The translations under genes were made by a program, and so were the position numbers. A stretch of 64,000 nucleotides of DNA from NCBI GenBank assembly GCA_024137785.1, contig JAHRHZ010000222.1, positions 35,804,296 through 35,868,295 of the forward strand, in the 5' to 3' direction. Numbering within the stretch: position 1 is the stretch's first letter; each line of letters opens with the position of its first letter. Positions 14,965 through 60,877 of this stretch are shown in pieces. Below the pieces are notes generated by a model, which worked only from the letters and a program-made list of their open reading frames with translations, searched no databases and was not told the origin of the DNA. The DNA comes from Ginglymostoma cirratum (taxonomy: Eukaryota).

Positions 14965-15097
14965 TTAGAAATAGCAGGAACTGCCGATGCTGGATTCTGA
15001 GATAACAAGGTGTGGAGCTGGAGGAACACAGCAGGCCAGGCAGCATCAGAGGAGCAGGAAAGCTGACGTTTTGGGTCTGGACCCCTCTGCAGAAAAT
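14965..15097 (-). mobile_element. Penelope-like terminal repeat, short copy
   Basis: Minus strand reads CTGCAGA-GGGGTCCAGACCC-AAAAC-GTC followed by the family tail. Confidence 0.7.
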
Positions 15098-23984: not shown

Positions 23985-24374
23985 AGCAGACCACTCACCT
24001 ATCCCCTCCTCCCACCTCAAGCCCCACCCCCATCTCCTACCTACTAACCTCATCCCGCCCCCTTGACCTCCCTGGACTGACCTATCTCCTCCCTACCTCC
24101 CCACCTACACTCTCACCTTTACTGGCTCCATCCCCGCCTCTTTGACCTGTCTGACTCCTCTCCACCTATCCTCTCCTCCATCCATCTTCTATCTGCCTCC
24201 CCCTCTCTCCCTATTTATTTCAGAACCCTCTTCCCTGCCCCCATTTCTGATGAAGGGTCTAGGCCCAAAACGTCAAGCTTTCCTGCTCCTATGATGCTGC
24301 TTGGCCTGCTGTGTTCATCCAGCTCCACACCTTGTTATCTCGGATTCTCCGGCATCTGCAGTTCCTATTATCTC
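23985..24374 (+). mobile_element. Penelope-like terminal repeat (long form) with mutated hammerhead motif
   Basis: C-rich segment, then CTGATGA 24247-24253, AGGGTCTAGGCCC, AAAAC-GTC, then the shared GATGCTGCTTGGCCTGCTGTGTTCATCCAGC...GCATCTGCAG tail. Confidence 0.75.
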
Positions 24375-26984: not shown

Positions 26985-27250
26985 TCCTGCCTCTTCCCTG
27001 CCATCCCATTCTGCATTGGCCTGGGAAAATACAGCTTTTAATCCGTCCCGTGTACCATTATTTCACTTTTTTTTTCTGTATTCCCATCTCTGCACTTCCT
27101 TAGAAGCTATTCTTTCTCTATCTAGTTCTGAAGAAGGGTCCTAGATCTTGAAATGGCACCCTGTCCTCCTCTACAGACGTTGCTTGACCTGCTGAGCATT
27201 GCCAGCATATTTAGTTTTAGATCAGACTTCCATCATCCACATTACTTTGC
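26985..27250 (+). mobile_element. Old PLE-like terminal repeat
   Basis: CTGAAGA-AGGGTCCTAGATCTT-GAAAT at 27128, followed by the TTGACCTGCTGAGCATTGCCAGCA tail. Confidence 0.5.
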
Positions 27251-30100: not shown

Positions 30101-30481
30101 AGCCTAATCCTGCTTTCTCCCCATAACCTTTTTGATGCCATTCACCCCAAATGCTATATCTCACCGTCTCTTGAATACATTCACTGTTTTGGCATCGACT
30201 ACTTCCTGTGGTAATGAATTCCATGGGCTCACCACTCTTGGAGGAAGAATGCTCTTGCTCTTCAGGGAGTGCAGCGAAGATTTGCCAGGCTGATTCTGGG
30301 GATGGCAAATGAGGAGAGATTGACCAGGTTAGGACTGTTTTCAGTGGAGTTCAGATGAATGAGGGGTGGGAATCTCAGGGACTCAAAATTCTAATAGGAC
30401 TAGACAGGGAAGATGCAGGGAGGATGTTCCTGATGGCGGGTTCTGGACACACCCGCCATCAGGAACATCCTCCCTGCATCT
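30101..30481. repeat. Rearranged local copy of the 28402-28820 LINE segment
   Basis: Forward/inverted/forward pieces, flanked by 10-bp duplication TTGCCCAATA. Confidence 0.85.
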
Positions 30482-32629
30482 TTGCCCAATAATTAGCGCT
30501 GCTATCCTCTGACATCCAGCTTTGCAAACAGACTTTTCTGGTTTGAGGCAAGGGGGTGAGTTAGGCAGGCAGGGGAACTTAATTGGGCAAGAGTCCAATT
30601 TTCAGAATCTCAGTGGCAGAGTAAACTTTTGCAACAAGGCTACTCAACCTTAAGAGGCAAATTGATGTGCGTAGTTGCAGAGCACAATAGTCCCCTCTCT
30701 AGAGGTGGCAATGAAAGCGGTTTGAAGGGCAAATAATTGGGGTGAGTTTCCCCCTTTTTTTTTGTCTCCCTAACACTATTGTGTTTAAGTGCTGGGCATG
30801 AAAGTTGATGGATGACCTCCCTGAGGTGAATTAACAGCGACCTAGGGGGCTCAAGTTATCACTGGGCCAATGATCTGCTCTGTCGCCAGGTGTTTGAGAG
30901 AAGCAGGTTTCCAGGTTTGGAAACGAGGATAATCTGCCAGTCAGCTCTTGGAGCAGACCTCTGTTTGCCCAAAACTGGGGTAAATCAGGGACTGGGTAAG
31001 GTCACTGGAGGTCAAACCCTCCCAGAGACCCCCACCCCCACAAAACCCAAAAGAGAAGTTTTTTTCTGTTTAAGTTCATAAAACCTGGACATCCAATGGC
31101 AACTTCCAAGAGCCAGGAACTATTGGCCTGTGGCTGACAACTTCTGGCAGGGCGGGTCTTCAGTGATTTCTTGTGATTTGCCGAGAAGCTCATCAGTCAG
31201 CTCTTCAGTGACTGACTGATCCAGTGAGCTTTCTTACTGGAGGGTTTGGAAAATCAGTCACCAAAAGTGTGAAGGTCACTTGGAGAATGGGCGGGATCAG
31301 GGTCAGGACTCAGCAGGGGAGGGCTGAGAGAATCGGAAAATGACATTGACAAGGCTGGAATTGATGGAAAAGCAGGAAGTTCTAGGGTAACAAATGATAG
31401 GAATCAAGGCAGTGTGTGTGGAAGAAATAGAGATTGATGGGTTACTTGGGGGAGGGTCAGATATATTTGTCTGTTTCATTTCTTTTGAGGATAATTTCTG
31501 TACAATGAAGTGGCAATCAGTGTCAAAAAAGCAGTATGTAAAGAAGGAGGAAGATTTTATTTCGGTGTGTGGGGTTAGCACTTGAATTTTCTTTGGTTGA
31601 CTGAAGGGGAATCCTATAAATGATAGAGCTTGGAAAACCACATAAGGCTGGGTTCCGCTCCCAGTGAACCAGCAATACTCCAGAACTCATGGCACCGCAT
31701 TCCAACAGGATCTCACATCGGCATGGAGGCATAGTACATTGTGAGCTGATTGGCACCTCGTCATGGCCAATATATGGCTGCACCAGGAGGAATGGAGAAA
31801 GATTCGAGCCTTATGGGGCCCAGATGGCGGAACGCAACAGTTTTCGGGATTGGGGGCTCCAGTTTCCTGTGTAGTGGTTTATGGCAGGTAAGGAGGGTGG
31901 GTGACAGGACTTTCATCTCAGAGCAAGGTGACTACAGTTGAGTTCCTTCCTGAAGGAGAGCTCGCCACAGTGTCTGAGAAAGTGCACAGACTTGTTTTAC
32001 GTGTTCTGGGCATTGCATGTTGTCTCCACGCACGTATATTTTGCTATAAAGAGCTGCCCTCTGAGGCCACATCAGTTGGATCTGATGGTGTGTGATGAGG
32101 AAGTCGGGGGAGGAGAGATGCTAGGTTTACAGCAGTGCCATAATGGAGCAGGGTTGAACAGCAACCATCAAAGAAAATGATGACCATATGGATCAATCCA
32201 CCGTATACACAGATCTCCTGAAACCGACACTCGAGTAACAGACAACGACCCATCCCCTGCTCTGAGCACCGTGCAGCTGAGAAGGAACTAGCAATGGAGG
32301 ATAAAGAAGCAGCATAGACAGCAGAGAAACCTGATCCAGCTAACCGGGGACAACATTGATGATGAGCGGTGGCCAAAACCGGAATCTACAGGTGTCAGCT
32401 GCCTTTGACTCATCACGGTGGTGTCGTACAAATTGCAGCTCTTCAATAAGGATCTGTGCCTGAAAGGAATGAGAGACAGTTGTACACCAGTTGCCTTGTA
32501 GTTCACCCAGGCCCCTGAGCTCCTTTGCAAATGGTTTGTTCCAGGCTCCACTGAGGATGTCAGTGACTCACATGTACATACAGAAAGTCACTGATATTTG
32601 ATTTGGAAAATCCCAGGAATTTCCCTTTG

Positions 32630-33800
32630 ATATAGAGATCTAGGCTGCTCTTGCCTCTCTCTTACTTTTTAGATATCGTAAAAAAATTTGCAATTTTCTT
32701 TTATATCAGTAGCTAGTTTACGGTCATATTTCATCTTCTCCTTCCTTTATTGCTTTTTTTTTTTAAAAGTTATCCTTTTTTTTGAAAAGGTTACCAATCC
32801 TTTGGCTTCCCACTAATTTTCACCACATTGTTTGCTTCTTCTTTTGTGTTATGCTGTCCCTGTCTTCTCTTGTCAGCCATGGTTGCCACATCCTCCCCTT
32901 CGTATGTGTCTTCTTCCTTGTGGTGAATTTCTGCTGTGCCTCCCGAATTACCCTCAGAAACTCCTGCCATTGCTGCTCCACCATCTTCCCTGCTAGTCCT
33001 CCCTTCCAATCCACTCCGGCCAGCTCCTCCCTAATATCTTTACAACTGTGTGAAGGTAACTGCAATGTCATTACATCTGATTCCAGCTTCTCCCTCTCAA
33101 ACTGCAGGGTGAATTACATTTAATGATGGTCACTGCCCCCTAGAGGTTCTTTCATCTTAAGCTCCCTCATAAAGTCTGCTTCATTACACAGAGCCGATTC
33201 TGGATTTGGTGATATCACTAAGTCCTCCAAAAAATCTTGTGGACATTCCTCAAATTCCTCTTCTTGAGATGCACTACCAATTTGACTTTCCCAGTCCCCC
33301 ATGATTATTATAACAGTGCTTTTCTTACATGCCTTTTCTATTTTCTTCCCCACATCCTGATTATTTCTGAGAGGCCTAAGCCAAACTCCCATCAGGGTCT
33401 TCTTTTCCCTTTGCGTTCTTCAACTCTACCCACACAGATTCTACCTTTCCGACTCTAGATCACTGCTTGCTATCGATTTAATTTCATTTCTTACTAATAA
33501 GGCAATCCCACCTAGTCTGCCCATCCTCTTGATGGGACATGTATCCTTGGGTATTTAGTTTCAAGCTCTGGTCCTCTTGCAGCCATGTCTCTGTGGTACA
33601 CATAACATTGTACCTACCCATTTCAATCTGCGCTACAAGCTTATTTTCTGATGAAGGGTTTAGGCCCGAAACGTCAAGTTTTCCTGCTCCTATGATGCTG
33701 CTTGACCTGCTGTGTTCATCCAGCCCCATGCTTGTTATCTCTACAAGCTCATTTACCTTGTTTCATGTACTGCCTGCATTATAAACTCACTGCAATGCAA
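32630..33800 (-). mobile_element. CR1-like LINE endonuclease/linker region
   Basis: ELVAQIEM...TETWLQ, IIMGD and EPLGGSDH motifs. Interrupted by the 33642 insertion. Confidence 0.8.
33642..33740 (+). mobile_element. Short Penelope-like terminal-repeat insertion with intact minimal hammerhead ribozyme motif
   Basis: CTGATGA 33648-33654, extra A, stem II GGGT-ttag-GCCC, GAAAC 33668-33672, GTC 33673-33675. Flanked by 9-bp duplication CTACAAGCT inside a CR1 endonuclease relic. Confidence 0.8.
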
Positions 33801-34203
33801 CACCTTCTGTCCTGAGTTGATTTCTGCCTTTGCATAGTTAAGTTCCATATTCTCTGTCCGATTTACTTGTTCTGGAAACTTTAACCTTTTGAGCACCCCC
33901 CCCCCACCCCGCCACTTTAACTTTTTCCATAGTTTTTCATGCAGCTGAAGCCACCCATACCACTATTTAGGTTACAGACTATCCACAGCCCGTGTTATGC
34001 AATACGCCAGGACTCTGGTCCCGTCATGATTCATGTGGAGCCCATGCCAGTGGAACATCCTTCCCCAGTGCTGGTGCCAATAGAGATGCCTCCTCTAATG
34101 AGGAATGGGCCGTTGATGATTGTGACACAGGCCAAGGGGTCATTTACAGAGCAGGAAGAGGCCAGTGATAAGACAAAGGCACACAGCCTCATGGAAAAGG
34201 TAA

Positions 34204-48854: not shown

Positions 48855-49165
48855 CAAGCCCCACCCCCATTTCCTGCCTACTAGCCTCATCCAGCCCCCT
48901 TGACCTGTCTGTCCTCCCTGGACTGACCTATGCCCTCCCTAACTCCTCACCTTTACTGGCTCCATCCCCGCCTCTTTGACCTGTCTGTCTCATCTCGACG
49001 TATCTTCTCCTCTATCCATCTTCTATCTGCCTCCGCCTCTCTCCATATTTATTTCAGAACCCACTTCCCCTCCCCTATTTCTGTAGAAGGGTCTAGGCCT
49101 GAAACATCAGCTTTCCTCCTCCTCTGATGCTGCTTGGCCTGCTGTGTTCATCCAGCTCTACACCT
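48855..49165 (+). mobile_element. Penelope-like terminal repeat, diverged copy
   Basis: Colinear with 23985-24374. Motif CTGTAGA-AGGGTCTAGGCCT-GAAACATC at 49081-49108. Confidence 0.72.
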
Positions 49166-53780: not shown

Positions 53781-54476
53781 TTTTCTCTCGACAGATGCTT
53801 CAAGGCATGCTGTGTTTTTGCAGCACTGTATTGTCAATAAGGGAGATAGATTATTGGCAGAAAAATTGGAAAGTCAGTTCAGTGGTCTCTGCTTCTTGAT
53901 TCCAATGATAAGACGATTCTTCTTCAGTTAGCCAGGTGCTTGGTGTTCAATTGTCTTTCTCTGGAAGCTTCCACTGATTTGTAAGATATGCAGAATGACT
54001 GATTCACGTGGAAAATGTCTCTGCTTTATCAATTTAAAAGCTATAGCTTGCAGCATTTGCTGCAAGGAAGTTAAATAGTTTTCTTCAAGTTTAAACTTTT
54101 GTTTTACTTCAGAGAACTGGCAGCATCTGCTGTGGAAGACAATTTCAAATCATTCTGTGTCTCTCTCTCTCTGTCGGTGTGTCCGTGCCTCTGTAACTTG
54201 TTTCCGGTTCTAACCGGCTCAGCTAGCTGAGCACCAATCAGCTTCACTTATAAACAACTCCTAAGCTCCTGATCATTTGTTCTTTGCAGGAACCCATAGC
54301 TGCAAGAAAACAGAGATTGTAACAGATTTCAAATTCCTTTCTGTGAAATCATACAGCCATCCTGGTAAATTCTTATTTTGAAAAAAAACAGTTCTTTCTC
54401 CTTGCAGCTATACTTTTTAAAGATCAAGAAATAAAACAATATGGTTCATACATTGCACAACAATATATGAACCATG

Positions 54477-55080
54477 ATAACAAGCATGGGGCTGGATGAA
54501 CACGGCAGGTCAAGCAGCATCATAGGAGCAGGAAAACTTAGGAAAAACTTAGCAGGAAAAGTTTTCCTGCTCCTATGANNNNNNNNNNNNNNNNNNNNNN
54601 NNNNNNNNNNNNNNNNNNNNNNNNNNNNNNNNNNNNNNNNNNNNNNNNNNNNNNNNNNNNNNNNNNNNNNNNNNNNNNNNNNNNNNNNNNNNNNNNNNNN
54701 NNNNNNNNNNNNNNNNNNNNNNNNNNNNNNNNNNNNNNNNNNNNNNNNNNNNNNNNNNNNNNNNNNNNNNNNNNNNNNNNNNNNNNNNNNNNNNNNNNNN
54801 NNNNNNNNNNNNNNNNNNNNNNNNNNNNNNNNNNNNNNNNNNNNNNNNNNNNNNNNNNNNNNNNNNNNNNNNNNNNNNNNNNNNNNNNNNNNNNNNNNNN
54901 NNNNNNNNNNNNNNNNNNNNNNNNNNNNNNNNNNNNNNNNNNNNNNNNNNNNNNNNNNNNNNNNNNNNNNNNNNNNNNTCAAGTTTTCCTGCTCCTATGA
55001 TGCTGCTTGGCCTGCTGTGTTCATCCAGCCCCATGCTTGTTATCTCGGATTCTCCAGCATCTGCAGTACCTTTTATCTCG
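54477..55080. mobile_element. Young PLE-type insertion with inverted arms (spans a gap)
   Basis: Minus arm 54477-54539 and plus arm ending 55079. 15-bp duplication AATATATGAACCATG at 54462-54476 and 55081-55095. Confidence 0.75.
54579..54978. other. Assembly gap (400 N)
   Basis: Run of N. Confidence 1.
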
Positions 55081-58999: not shown

Positions 59000-60795
59000 A
59001 GGCAATATTTCAAGGGTTAAATAATCTCTGCATTATCACTACAGCCTTAAGCAAATTGGCTTAGTGTTTATAAAATTAGAGAGTTGAACATATGATTCAA
59101 AGATGGGTGTGGGACCAGTGGACTCCAGTTTCTAGGACACTGGTACAGTACAGGGGAAAGTGTGGGCTGTACCGTTAGGAGGTACAGCCTCTGAAGCATG
59201 CTGGGGCCAATTCTGTTGTGAACAACTAAACTAGGAAAGTGGAGAGGGTTTTAATCTATATATTAGGCACAATTATGGAAAGATGCGGTATATCAAAGAG
59301 TTAGAGAAAAAAGAGCGGGAAGTGGTAATGGAGAAAACTAGGGTCAGAATATGGCAAGATGGGACAGTGAAAAAAAAAGTATGCATGAAACAAACAAGAT
59401 GAGATTTTACAAAGATAACAAAAAGATAAAATTAAAGGCTTTGTATTTGAAGGTTGGTAGCATTCATTTTTTAAACAAATTGAAAGTGCATGTTAAAATA
59501 AATAGCCATGATATTTATTACAGAGACATGGTTTCAGGATAACAAGACTTGGGATCCTGAGTATTGAAGGGAGGCAAAGTTGAATGTGCAGTGTTGTTAA
59601 TCAACGATGGCATTTGTGTAATTAGCAAGGATCAGGAGTTCAGTATATAGAATCTGTTCGAGTGGAGGCTAGGGTTAATAGGAAAATGAACTTGCCAGTT
59701 TGTGTGTGGTCTGCAGACAATGCCAACATTAACCATTATGTGGGACAAAGTTTACAAGAAGATATATTGGGTGCTTGTGATAAAATGACAACAGTAATCA
59801 TGGGTGACTTTAATGTACATAGAAAATTGAAAAATCAGAGTAGTTGACGTGGGCTGGATGAGGAGTTTTTAGAATGCTTTCAAGATAGAGCCACATGTTT
59901 TGGGCCAGAGCAGGTTATATTAAACCTGCTCTTTTGTAACTAAATAAGTGAGGGAGAGGATCAAAGTTAAGGAAAACGCACATAGCAGCTCAAAGCTGAG
60001 TGGCAGGTCAGATGATTGGTCACAATATAGAAGGTCACAATATATTGGTCACAACAGCATAGAAGGAATACAAGGTTAATCAGGTGAAGATATTAGAAGA
60101 TGAGAGGAAGCAACCTAGGAATATATAAACAGATAGCCATAGATATTTAAAAAGGAATGGACTAAGTAAAATGAGTGTTGGTCCTCTAGAGTGTGAGAAT
60201 GTGAGTTAATAGAAAATAATGAGGAAATGATGGATGAAATAAACAAATGTTTTACTTCACTATACAGGATACAACAAACTAAGTCAAGAAGTGGAAGGCG
60301 GAGACGAACTAGGCGAAATCATAATCACCAGCGAAGTGATACTAAGCAAATGGATGGACCTGCAGCCCAACAAGTCTGTGGGCTTAGATGGACTTCATTC
60401 CAGCATCTTAAAAGAGGTTGTTACAGAAGTACCAGATGCCAATTTTCCAAACACCCTACATTCAGAAAAAGTTGAATCAGACTGTAAAGTAGTAAGTACT
60501 GTCCTTTCATTCAAGAAACAAGGGAAGCAGAAAACAAGAAACTATGGGCTGGTTACCTTCACATCTGTCATGAGGAAGGTGTTAGAATCAATCATTAAAG
60601 AGATTATAGTTGTATACTTAGAAAAACCCAAGGTAATTGGGAAGAAACGACATAGTTTCTTCAAAGGGAAACACACATAACCAATTTATTGCAGATCTTT
60701 GAAGAAGTAACGTGCACTGTGGATAAAGGAGACCCTGTAAACACACTGTATTTGGATTTCCAGAAACATTTGATAAGGCACCACATCAGAAGTTA
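59000..60795 (+). mobile_element. CR1-like LINE (EN to RT), interrupted
   Basis: TVIMGDFN, KSVGLDGLHSSILKE, NYGLVTFTSVMRKVLESII, YLDFQK. The continuation lies inverted at 61050-61339. Confidence 0.8.
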
Positions 60796-60877
60796 ACAAG
60801 CATGGGGCTGGATGAACACAGCAGGTCAAGCAGCATCATAGGAGCAGGAAAACTCGACGTTTCGGGCCTAAACCCTT
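60796..60877 (-). mobile_element. Young PLE-type arm
   Basis: Minus strand AAGGGTTTAGGCCCGAAACGTCGAGTTTTCCTGCTCC..., same subfamily as 33642. Confidence 0.75.

Follow-up and report, generated by a model that had tools for sequence, protein, structure and literature searches.

A 99-bp insertion carrying a minimal hammerhead ribozyme motif lies within the window, i.e., the whole 64,000-nt stretch of Ginglymostoma cirratum DNA analysed here, and it raised two questions: (i) whether it was a mobile unit in its own right or a piece of a larger element and (ii) what fixed the point at which it began. The minimal hammerhead of Penelope-like elements (PLEs) is conserved; its activity in vitro is weak, and insertion does not require it in the one system that has been reconstituted. 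More than 40,000 near-identical copies of a young family that has intact ORFs offer a direct read-out of the hammerhead's role. The insert was read as one of tens of thousands of short ribozyme-bearing copies of a PLE end, not as a separate self-spreading element. With a probability of about 0.65, it represented the inserted hammerhead-bearing end of an autonomous PLE, most likely a dead-end cDNA that reverse transcriptase (RT) began internally and extended as far as the capped RNA 5' end. Judged from the copies themselves, the spot at which many short copies began is likely the start of the element's own RNA. Positions bearing a sign are given relative to hammerhead C3 (window position 33648 = 0), and the literature is cited for its accessible sections.

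The insertion and its target site

The insertion (33642 to 33740, plus strand) was bounded by a 9-bp target-site duplication, CTACAAGCT, at 33633 to 33641 on the left and 33741 to 33749 on the right (both plus strand), and the sequence read gave 99 bp between these two copies; counting the T/C-ATTT that comes next would lengthen the left duplication to 14 bp, one mismatch included. The insertion corresponded to the 5' leader/pLTR end of a Neptune-type PLE, from the putative RNA start to the first 3' end site, and positions 33645 to 33740 recurred exactly in L081, L339 (twice), L343, and L353. The 9-mer was present once in all 14 homologous flanks fetched (13 identical and one with one change), and the upstream 52 nt aligned gap-free to the left flank of the window at 36 to 42 positions in nine of these 14 homologs. 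The clean 99-bp insertion with a 9-bp target duplication, as proposed in an earlier sequence-only reading, was thereby borne out. The right flank had 40 matches in the genome. Contigs from four runs at the window locus contained no joint spanning an empty site. The locus itself is an ordinary insertion and probably inert.

The insertion was hosted by an old CR1-like LINE relic on the minus strand (32650 to 33860; 69% identity over about 1 kb to L253). The host had been named a CR1 relic: the old LINE relic stood, while the CR1 name depended on endonuclease motifs in the flank translation that we take to be of CR1 type, and Pfam gave no significant match on this translation.

The hammerhead motif

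The minimal type I hammerhead core occupied 33648 to 33675 on the plus strand and was composed of CUGAUGA (33648 to 33654), an extra A (33655), a 4-bp stem II (33656 to 33659 with 33664 to 33667; three G-C pairs and one U.G), GAA (33668 to 33670), the palindrome ACGU (33671 to 33674), and C17 (33675). Stem I was formed by 33645 to 33647 with its 3' strand 33676 to 33678 (plus strand), and it measured 3 bp in the window copy and 4 bp in the parent; the T run constituting its 5' strand had one T more in the window copy than in the parent. Cleavage was predicted after 33675, between +27 and +28. All core nucleotides of a minimal type I hammerhead were thus found intact as first described, together with the extra A and a palindromic stem III. 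A15.1-U16.1 and H17, which mark the PLE-type minimal hammerhead, accompanied CUGANGA and GAA, and so did G10.1-C11.1, the extra nucleotide after A9, and a palindromic stem III, which was ACGU in most families.

The loose core motif had two matches in the window versus 1.29 expected, a number not above chance, and an Rfam scan of the window returned no hammerhead at E ≤ 5; the latter blank lowers the case for filing the motif in an Rfam family, not its functional likeness, as the Rfam models call for longer stems. Neither the monomer nor the dimer took up the active fold in its minimum-energy structure, and the fold of the unit (z -0.33) formed stem II but mispaired the core, thermodynamic folding being uninformative for such motifs. 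In a 130-nt form (L118:1580-1725, minus strand), a 10-bp helix could form between the core and the end of the tail, a possible off state (146-nt fold, z -0.81).

Conservation across families

The full hammerhead descriptor matched 278 times in 1.31 Mb of fetched, repeat-selected loci and not once in a shuffle, and these matches fell into about six families. The core boxes were invariant in all 10 natural family exemplars, which had been chosen by these boxes; 91% of cells paired, seven of 10 pairs were changed on both sides, and slid controls were at most 46% paired. The covariation score was reached by none of 500 shuffles, a test inflated by relatedness. Stem II and the core were demanded by the descriptor, and hence the 100% pairing of stem II was circular; stem I was not demanded, and it was 85% paired with two-sided changes in all four pairs. 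Family G, shifted by one column in the MAFFT alignment, was kept outside the pair count; by eye it retained a 4-bp stem I and a 5-bp stem II, with the palindrome AGCU (two copies). Minimal hammerheads of further, distant families (an AGCU palindrome; a stem II of 6 bp plus an extra U) were also seen in the same genome at L070:1061-1103, L385:627-674, L216:892-939, and L322:4101-4142.

An intact core was retained in 52 of the 102 clean copies described below, and the comparison indicates that selection on the ribozyme acts in the parent lineages while single copies decay. The check on copies suggested in the sequence-only reading found core nucleotides conserved and stem I covarying; by these comparisons, the motif of the 99-bp insertion is a real conserved ribozyme motif of predicted activity.

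The relatives within the window had been described as mostly keeping their pairing, and this description failed: the whole motif was kept in none of the six copies cited, and the GCCC/ACCC change was one-sided. G12 was mutated in the copies at 24247, 15065-15092, and about 56900; CUGANGA was damaged in those at 49081, 15065-15092, and about 56900 and absent through truncation from that at 60856; the copy at 27128 had both core boxes and a degenerate stem III. Being decayed or changed on one side, the window copies were dropped as covariation evidence.

Copy number and the parent element

A 54-mer of the unit, from +30, had 41,604 exact occurrences (control 0), and a 46-mer of the sister subfamily had 11,467; for the unit, 40 of 389 candidates were scored, and they gave at least 40 identical places, counting that in the window. 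The PLE family is young, as had been stated for the unit.

Copies sampled irrespective of their 5' end often continued upstream into shared sequence. L081 displayed the layout inverted pLTR, 5'-truncated ORF with RT and endonuclease (EN), and then pLTR, hammerhead, and tail. The parent ORF had its ATG 166 nt after C3, downstream of the tail, and its start stretch had 944 exact matches; an open, gap-free 1,037-aa frame was present in three of 20 fetched loci (L336 to L338; DNA identity 97.1-98.7%). The protein contained RVT_1 (PF00078, E 6.5e-7) and GIY-YIG (PF01541, E 7.2e-5) domains with a CX4CxxC linker between RT and EN, and its best named homolog, at 80%, came from Chiloscyllium punctatum, in keeping with the cartilaginous-fish element postulated earlier. 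Classified by the linker motif alone (criterion from the accessible sections of PMC8557442), the parent would be of Neptune/Nematis type. The other traits of EN+ PLEs were likewise present: pLTR, partial tandems, inverted 5' copies, 30-40-bp tail, and duplications. The proposed search for a parent PLE therefore succeeded, an RT plus GIY-YIG ORF being joined to the hammerhead pLTR, and the PLE origin was upheld by the 96-mer 33645 to 33740, which was unchanged in four of eight long ORF-bearing copies examined and showed one to three differences or a gap in the rest.

The leader of L339 had a 14-codon frame beginning within CUGAUGA and a 39-codon frame that ran from +44 and ended 2 nt before the main ATG; the first leader AUG (inside CUGAUGA) was absent from family E. 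Many copies in L101 to L130 consisted of the leader and the initial 70-130 nt of the ORF fused with either a second stub or a 3' piece of pLTR; these joins look like RT template jumps and may mark the RNA 3' end.

Ends of the copies

A total of 199 copies were aligned from loci picked by downstream anchors, and 102 clean copies were kept after removal of 29 beside N gaps, 15 at locus edges, those below 92% identity, and the reference itself. The 3' ends of these 102 fell mainly into two groups, 46 at +83 to +103 and 42 at +124/+126, with one at +114; 13 were alignments stopped by a sister-subfamily indel, and the reference ended at +126, so 3' ends could not register further out. The first site (33730 to 33741, plus strand) is a candidate internal RT start, as suggested by the 3' end histogram and by the accessible sections of PMC11167929; the second lay about 33 nt beyond and was absent from the window copy, which ended at the first. 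The interval between the two 3' ends is the PLE tail, which two internal RT starts explain in vitro according to the same source.

As for the 5' ends, 34 of 102 were located at -6 to -1, which defined a junction hotspot at 33643 to 33647 (plus strand) with an initiator-like A (33643) and the T run of stem I; 32 were scattered over -10 to -947, three lay at the cleavage site (+28/+29), and 18 lay elsewhere in +2 to +45. A second 5' peak at the foot of stem II (+5 to +7) comprised the remaining 15 of 102 copies (e.g., window 60791-60877) and may reflect a second start site or a stall. Genome-wide, exact copies of -3 to +22 had a non-parent base at -12 in 9,176 cases versus 18,052 that were parental to -13; hence, roughly 35-40% of copies with -3 to +22 intact began within a few bases of stem I.

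The 73 hotspot junctions comprised 40 simple ones, 29 inverted ones, two direct duplications, and two beside gaps. Of 30 loci with identical copies, 18 had a detectable duplication, and in 15 of these it overlapped the leading TAT by at least 2 nt; a fixed 5' TAT as part of the unit was rejected as query bias, the leading bases varying by copy.

Separate unit or parental end

The unit had been taken for a separate, non-autonomous, retrozyme-like derivative, which would be an independent element of about 100 nt whose transcripts cleave themselves as dimers and which, mobilised in trans, propagates through its own lineage. Such an element would fit the sharing of both ends by thousands of copies, the derivation of animal non-LTR retrozymes from PLE pLTRs (accessible text of bioRxiv 10.64898/2026.07.22.740005), and the few short tandem pairs (L049/L050). 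However, none of the five variable sites found showed a variant private to short (38) as against long (46) copies, only five of 102 copies had another hammerhead on the same strand within 400 bp, the unit was not permuted at the cleavage site, both 3' ends were shared with long copies, and the leading bases differed among copies. The 96-mer persisted in ORF-bearing copies and the 18,052 5'-half copies continued into the parent pLTR, and the claim of a separate unit was given up; a separate retrozyme-like element is already largely refuted, and we hold it to be very improbable. Membership of the class of non-LTR retrozymes was rejected as well, since the unit was neither tandem nor separate from its coding parent, contrary to the definitions in the accessible sections of PMC7229834 and bioRxiv 10.64898/2026.07.22.740005.

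Origin of the fixed 5' end

The preferred reading, a dead-end cDNA reaching the capped RNA 5' end, would proceed as follows. Pol II would start at the A four bases before C3, so that the RNA would open with the hammerhead as its first 32 nt; the target would be nicked by the GIY-YIG domain; RT would begin at either of two internal sites, about 93 or 126 nt after C3, and run off the RNA 5' end, often copying the cap as an extra base; and the cDNA would join the target via microhomology or fold back into an inverted copy. Most templates would be uncut when copied, and the ribozyme would be under selection in the parent lineage. A stub lacking the upstream TATA-like box would not spread further; the internal TATA-less promoter reported for Penelope of D. 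virilis (PMC2377424, accessible sections) means that stubs might not be wholly silent.

A TATA-like box was located at -31 from the hotspot A in family A (the parent) and was missing from the window stub, while in family E this A was part of TCAGTT and TATAAA stood at -29; the initiator and TATA readings follow consensus sequences that we presume to apply. Family E had non-parent upstream sequence in 71 of the first 100 of 7,524 matches (counted by eye), and it adjoined its own GIY-YIG ORF, with 41-61% amino-acid identity in four of 30 loci. A G came before the retained A/CA/CCA at 13 of the 19 simple hotspot junctions that the duplication did not cover (by eye; binomial p 3e-4), and truncation points elsewhere had it in five of 18 cases (Fisher p 0.022); the remaining 21 simple junctions stood outside this count, the duplication covering the start or the A being missing. 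G also preceded 11 of 22 junctions of family E (p 0.02, not corrected for duplications). Eleven of the 19 junctions tested had no detectable duplication, so the extra G may be templated. Full-length L1 insertions derived from capped RNA are described as bearing an extra G where the cap has been copied (PMC11702581, accessible sections), and microhomology with the target was seen here at many hotspot junctions. Penelope of D. virilis (PMC2377424, accessible sections) and Chlamys-3 are known to have a start site within the pLTR, and the RT of an anole PLE in vitro starts internally at two sites, accounts for the tail, and uses uncut RNA as its main substrate (PMC11167929, accessible sections).

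Among short ORF-start copies reaching the hammerhead (n = 11, by eye), six began at -3/-4, three ran upstream, and two abutted gaps. None of 16 long-ORF copies started at -4: seven ran on upstream, six started downstream of the hammerhead, and one each started at +2, started at +28, and abutted a gap; long copies would accordingly need longer, multimeric, or jumped templates. One unstranded poly(A) RNA-seq run gave 34,986 reads, 91% of which read through into unrelated sequence, with no end pile-up, the library being unsuited; a second run had only 10 matching reads.

The same 5' pile-up might instead be a premature stop or joining hotspot on longer RNA from the same parent, the stub being an ordinary 5'-truncated PLE copy. 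RT would then stall either as it exits the hammerhead, folded and perhaps bound by protein, or as it enters the C-rich tract, and AT-rich target ends would anneal to the T run; this agrees with the overlap of duplication and leading bases in the 15 of 18 cases and at many hotspot junctions, with the preference of the anole PLE endonuclease for ATT (accessible sections of PMC11167929), with the long-ORF copies reading past the hotspot, and with the second 5' peak at the stem II foot. We nevertheless judge it unlikely, as other T runs were not hotspots (+31 to +34, 5/102; -34, 1/102), family E, which differs in sequence and has no C run, peaked in the same register, and neither the G excess nor the TATA spacing is predicted by it.

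Far less credible is copying of the stubs from ribozyme-cut RNA, with self-cleavage setting the 5' end. By eye, 14 of the first 100 of 4,086 matches without G12 apparently started at +28, versus about three per position at +22 to +27, and the intact-ORF copy L338 started at +28/+29 with a 13-bp duplication; against this, starts at +28 made up at most about 2% of copies, some two to three times the level just downstream, A-rich chance matches inflated the +28 count, and the window copy retained the entire ribozyme. About two thirds of these first 100 matches were point mutants; the scaled number of +28 starts was about 700-900 copies, and starts at +29 to +36 gave 1,605 matches with a half-sensitive filter. 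The cleavage site was thus rejected as the main 5' end (3/102 at +28/+29, with a weak genome-wide excess), and RNA cut by the ribozyme could be no more than a minor template, in agreement with the in vitro result for the Anolis element PAc (PMC11167929, accessible sections). L338 (G000:C39:27721000-27729000, minus strand), with an open 1,037-aa frame from the predicted cleavage site, may derive from ribozyme-cut RNA.

Copies that mostly keep the ribozyme whole and begin at its first base argue against cleavage defining the template end, and the 5' profile points to a role of the hammerhead at the capped RNA 5' end. A wider version of the RNA-start reading is put forward tentatively, at somewhat less than an even chance: the hammerhead of the shark Neptune-type PLE would be the first 32 nt of a TATA-driven capped mRNA, in a register conserved across diverged families; internal RT starts in the 5' leader would give strong-stop-like cDNAs integrating by the ten thousand; and the genome would record RNA start, cap, and, in about 2% of copies, self-cleavage. 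If the hammerhead does form these first 32 nt, the ribozyme would be a decapping switch, not a tool excising the element from a host transcript, and cleavage would also remove the upstream AUG in the young family.

Comparison with known systems

The minimal type I hammerheads of metazoan PLE pLTRs (PMC4209133, accessible sections) shared with the present motif the core boxes, the extra base between 9 and 10.1, G10.1-C11.1, the palindromic 15-16 region, a short stem I, the pLTR location, and the occurrence mostly as single dispersed motifs from truncated PLEs. Stem II was 4 bp here versus 6-8 bp in schistosome and fly motifs of that source, with a stem I of 3-4 bp here, and neither the coincidence with a start site nor sharks are mentioned in its accessible sections. 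Resemblance extended to the EN+ PLEs Neptune and Nematis (PMC8557442 and PMC3846280, accessible sections): a single ORF with RT and then GIY-YIG, the CX4CxxC linker, a pLTR, an inverted 5'-truncated copy, a 30-40-bp tail, and 8-15-bp duplications. TATA plus Inr in the pLTR is also recorded there for rotifer Pen2a. Unlike the EN+ PLEs in these sources, the present family had a very high share of stubs of about 95-130 bp with a fixed start.

Poseidon PAc of Anolis carolinensis (PMC11167929, accessible sections) similarly had two internal RT starts with two 3' ends, a hammerhead near the ORF start, and uncut RNA as the apparent main template; however, PAc belongs to a different clade, and the ORF here lay 166 nt after C3, downstream of the tail, rather than at stem II. 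The non-LTR retrozymes of animals (PMC7229834; Li et al. 2026 bioRxiv; accessible sections of both) were likewise non-coding and PLE-related with a type I hammerhead, but they are tandem repeats, mostly of 150-450 bp, with circular RNAs, whereas the unit here was monomeric and dispersed, and a coding parent contained the identical sequence. Stubs of this kind are prone to mis-annotation as SINEs or retrozymes. A start at hammerhead stem I or mass shark stubs were not found described in the literature covered, which was mostly outside subscription journals. The locus is a real insertion with a conserved ribozyme motif of a known element kind, and the fixed start is a real side pattern.

Other repeats in the window

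Three further regions of the window carried related copies: (i) a longer pLTR copy of the sister subfamily (24001 to 24374, plus strand) with TATA-like box, hammerhead (G12 mutated), and tail; (ii) an inverted pair of same-family stubs flanking a 400-N gap (54476 to 55079, both orientations), read as a fold-back insertion; and (iii) a same-family stub starting at +6 and lacking CUGAUG (60791 to 60877, minus strand). N gaps sat in the middle of inverted pairs, in the window at 54476-55079 and beside 29 of the 199 sampled copies, and this central position suggests that fold-back insertions are under-assembled. At 30401-30492, a near-perfect hairpin of 80-90 bp matched several miRNA models far below their gathering scores and is possibly a MITE-like repeat.
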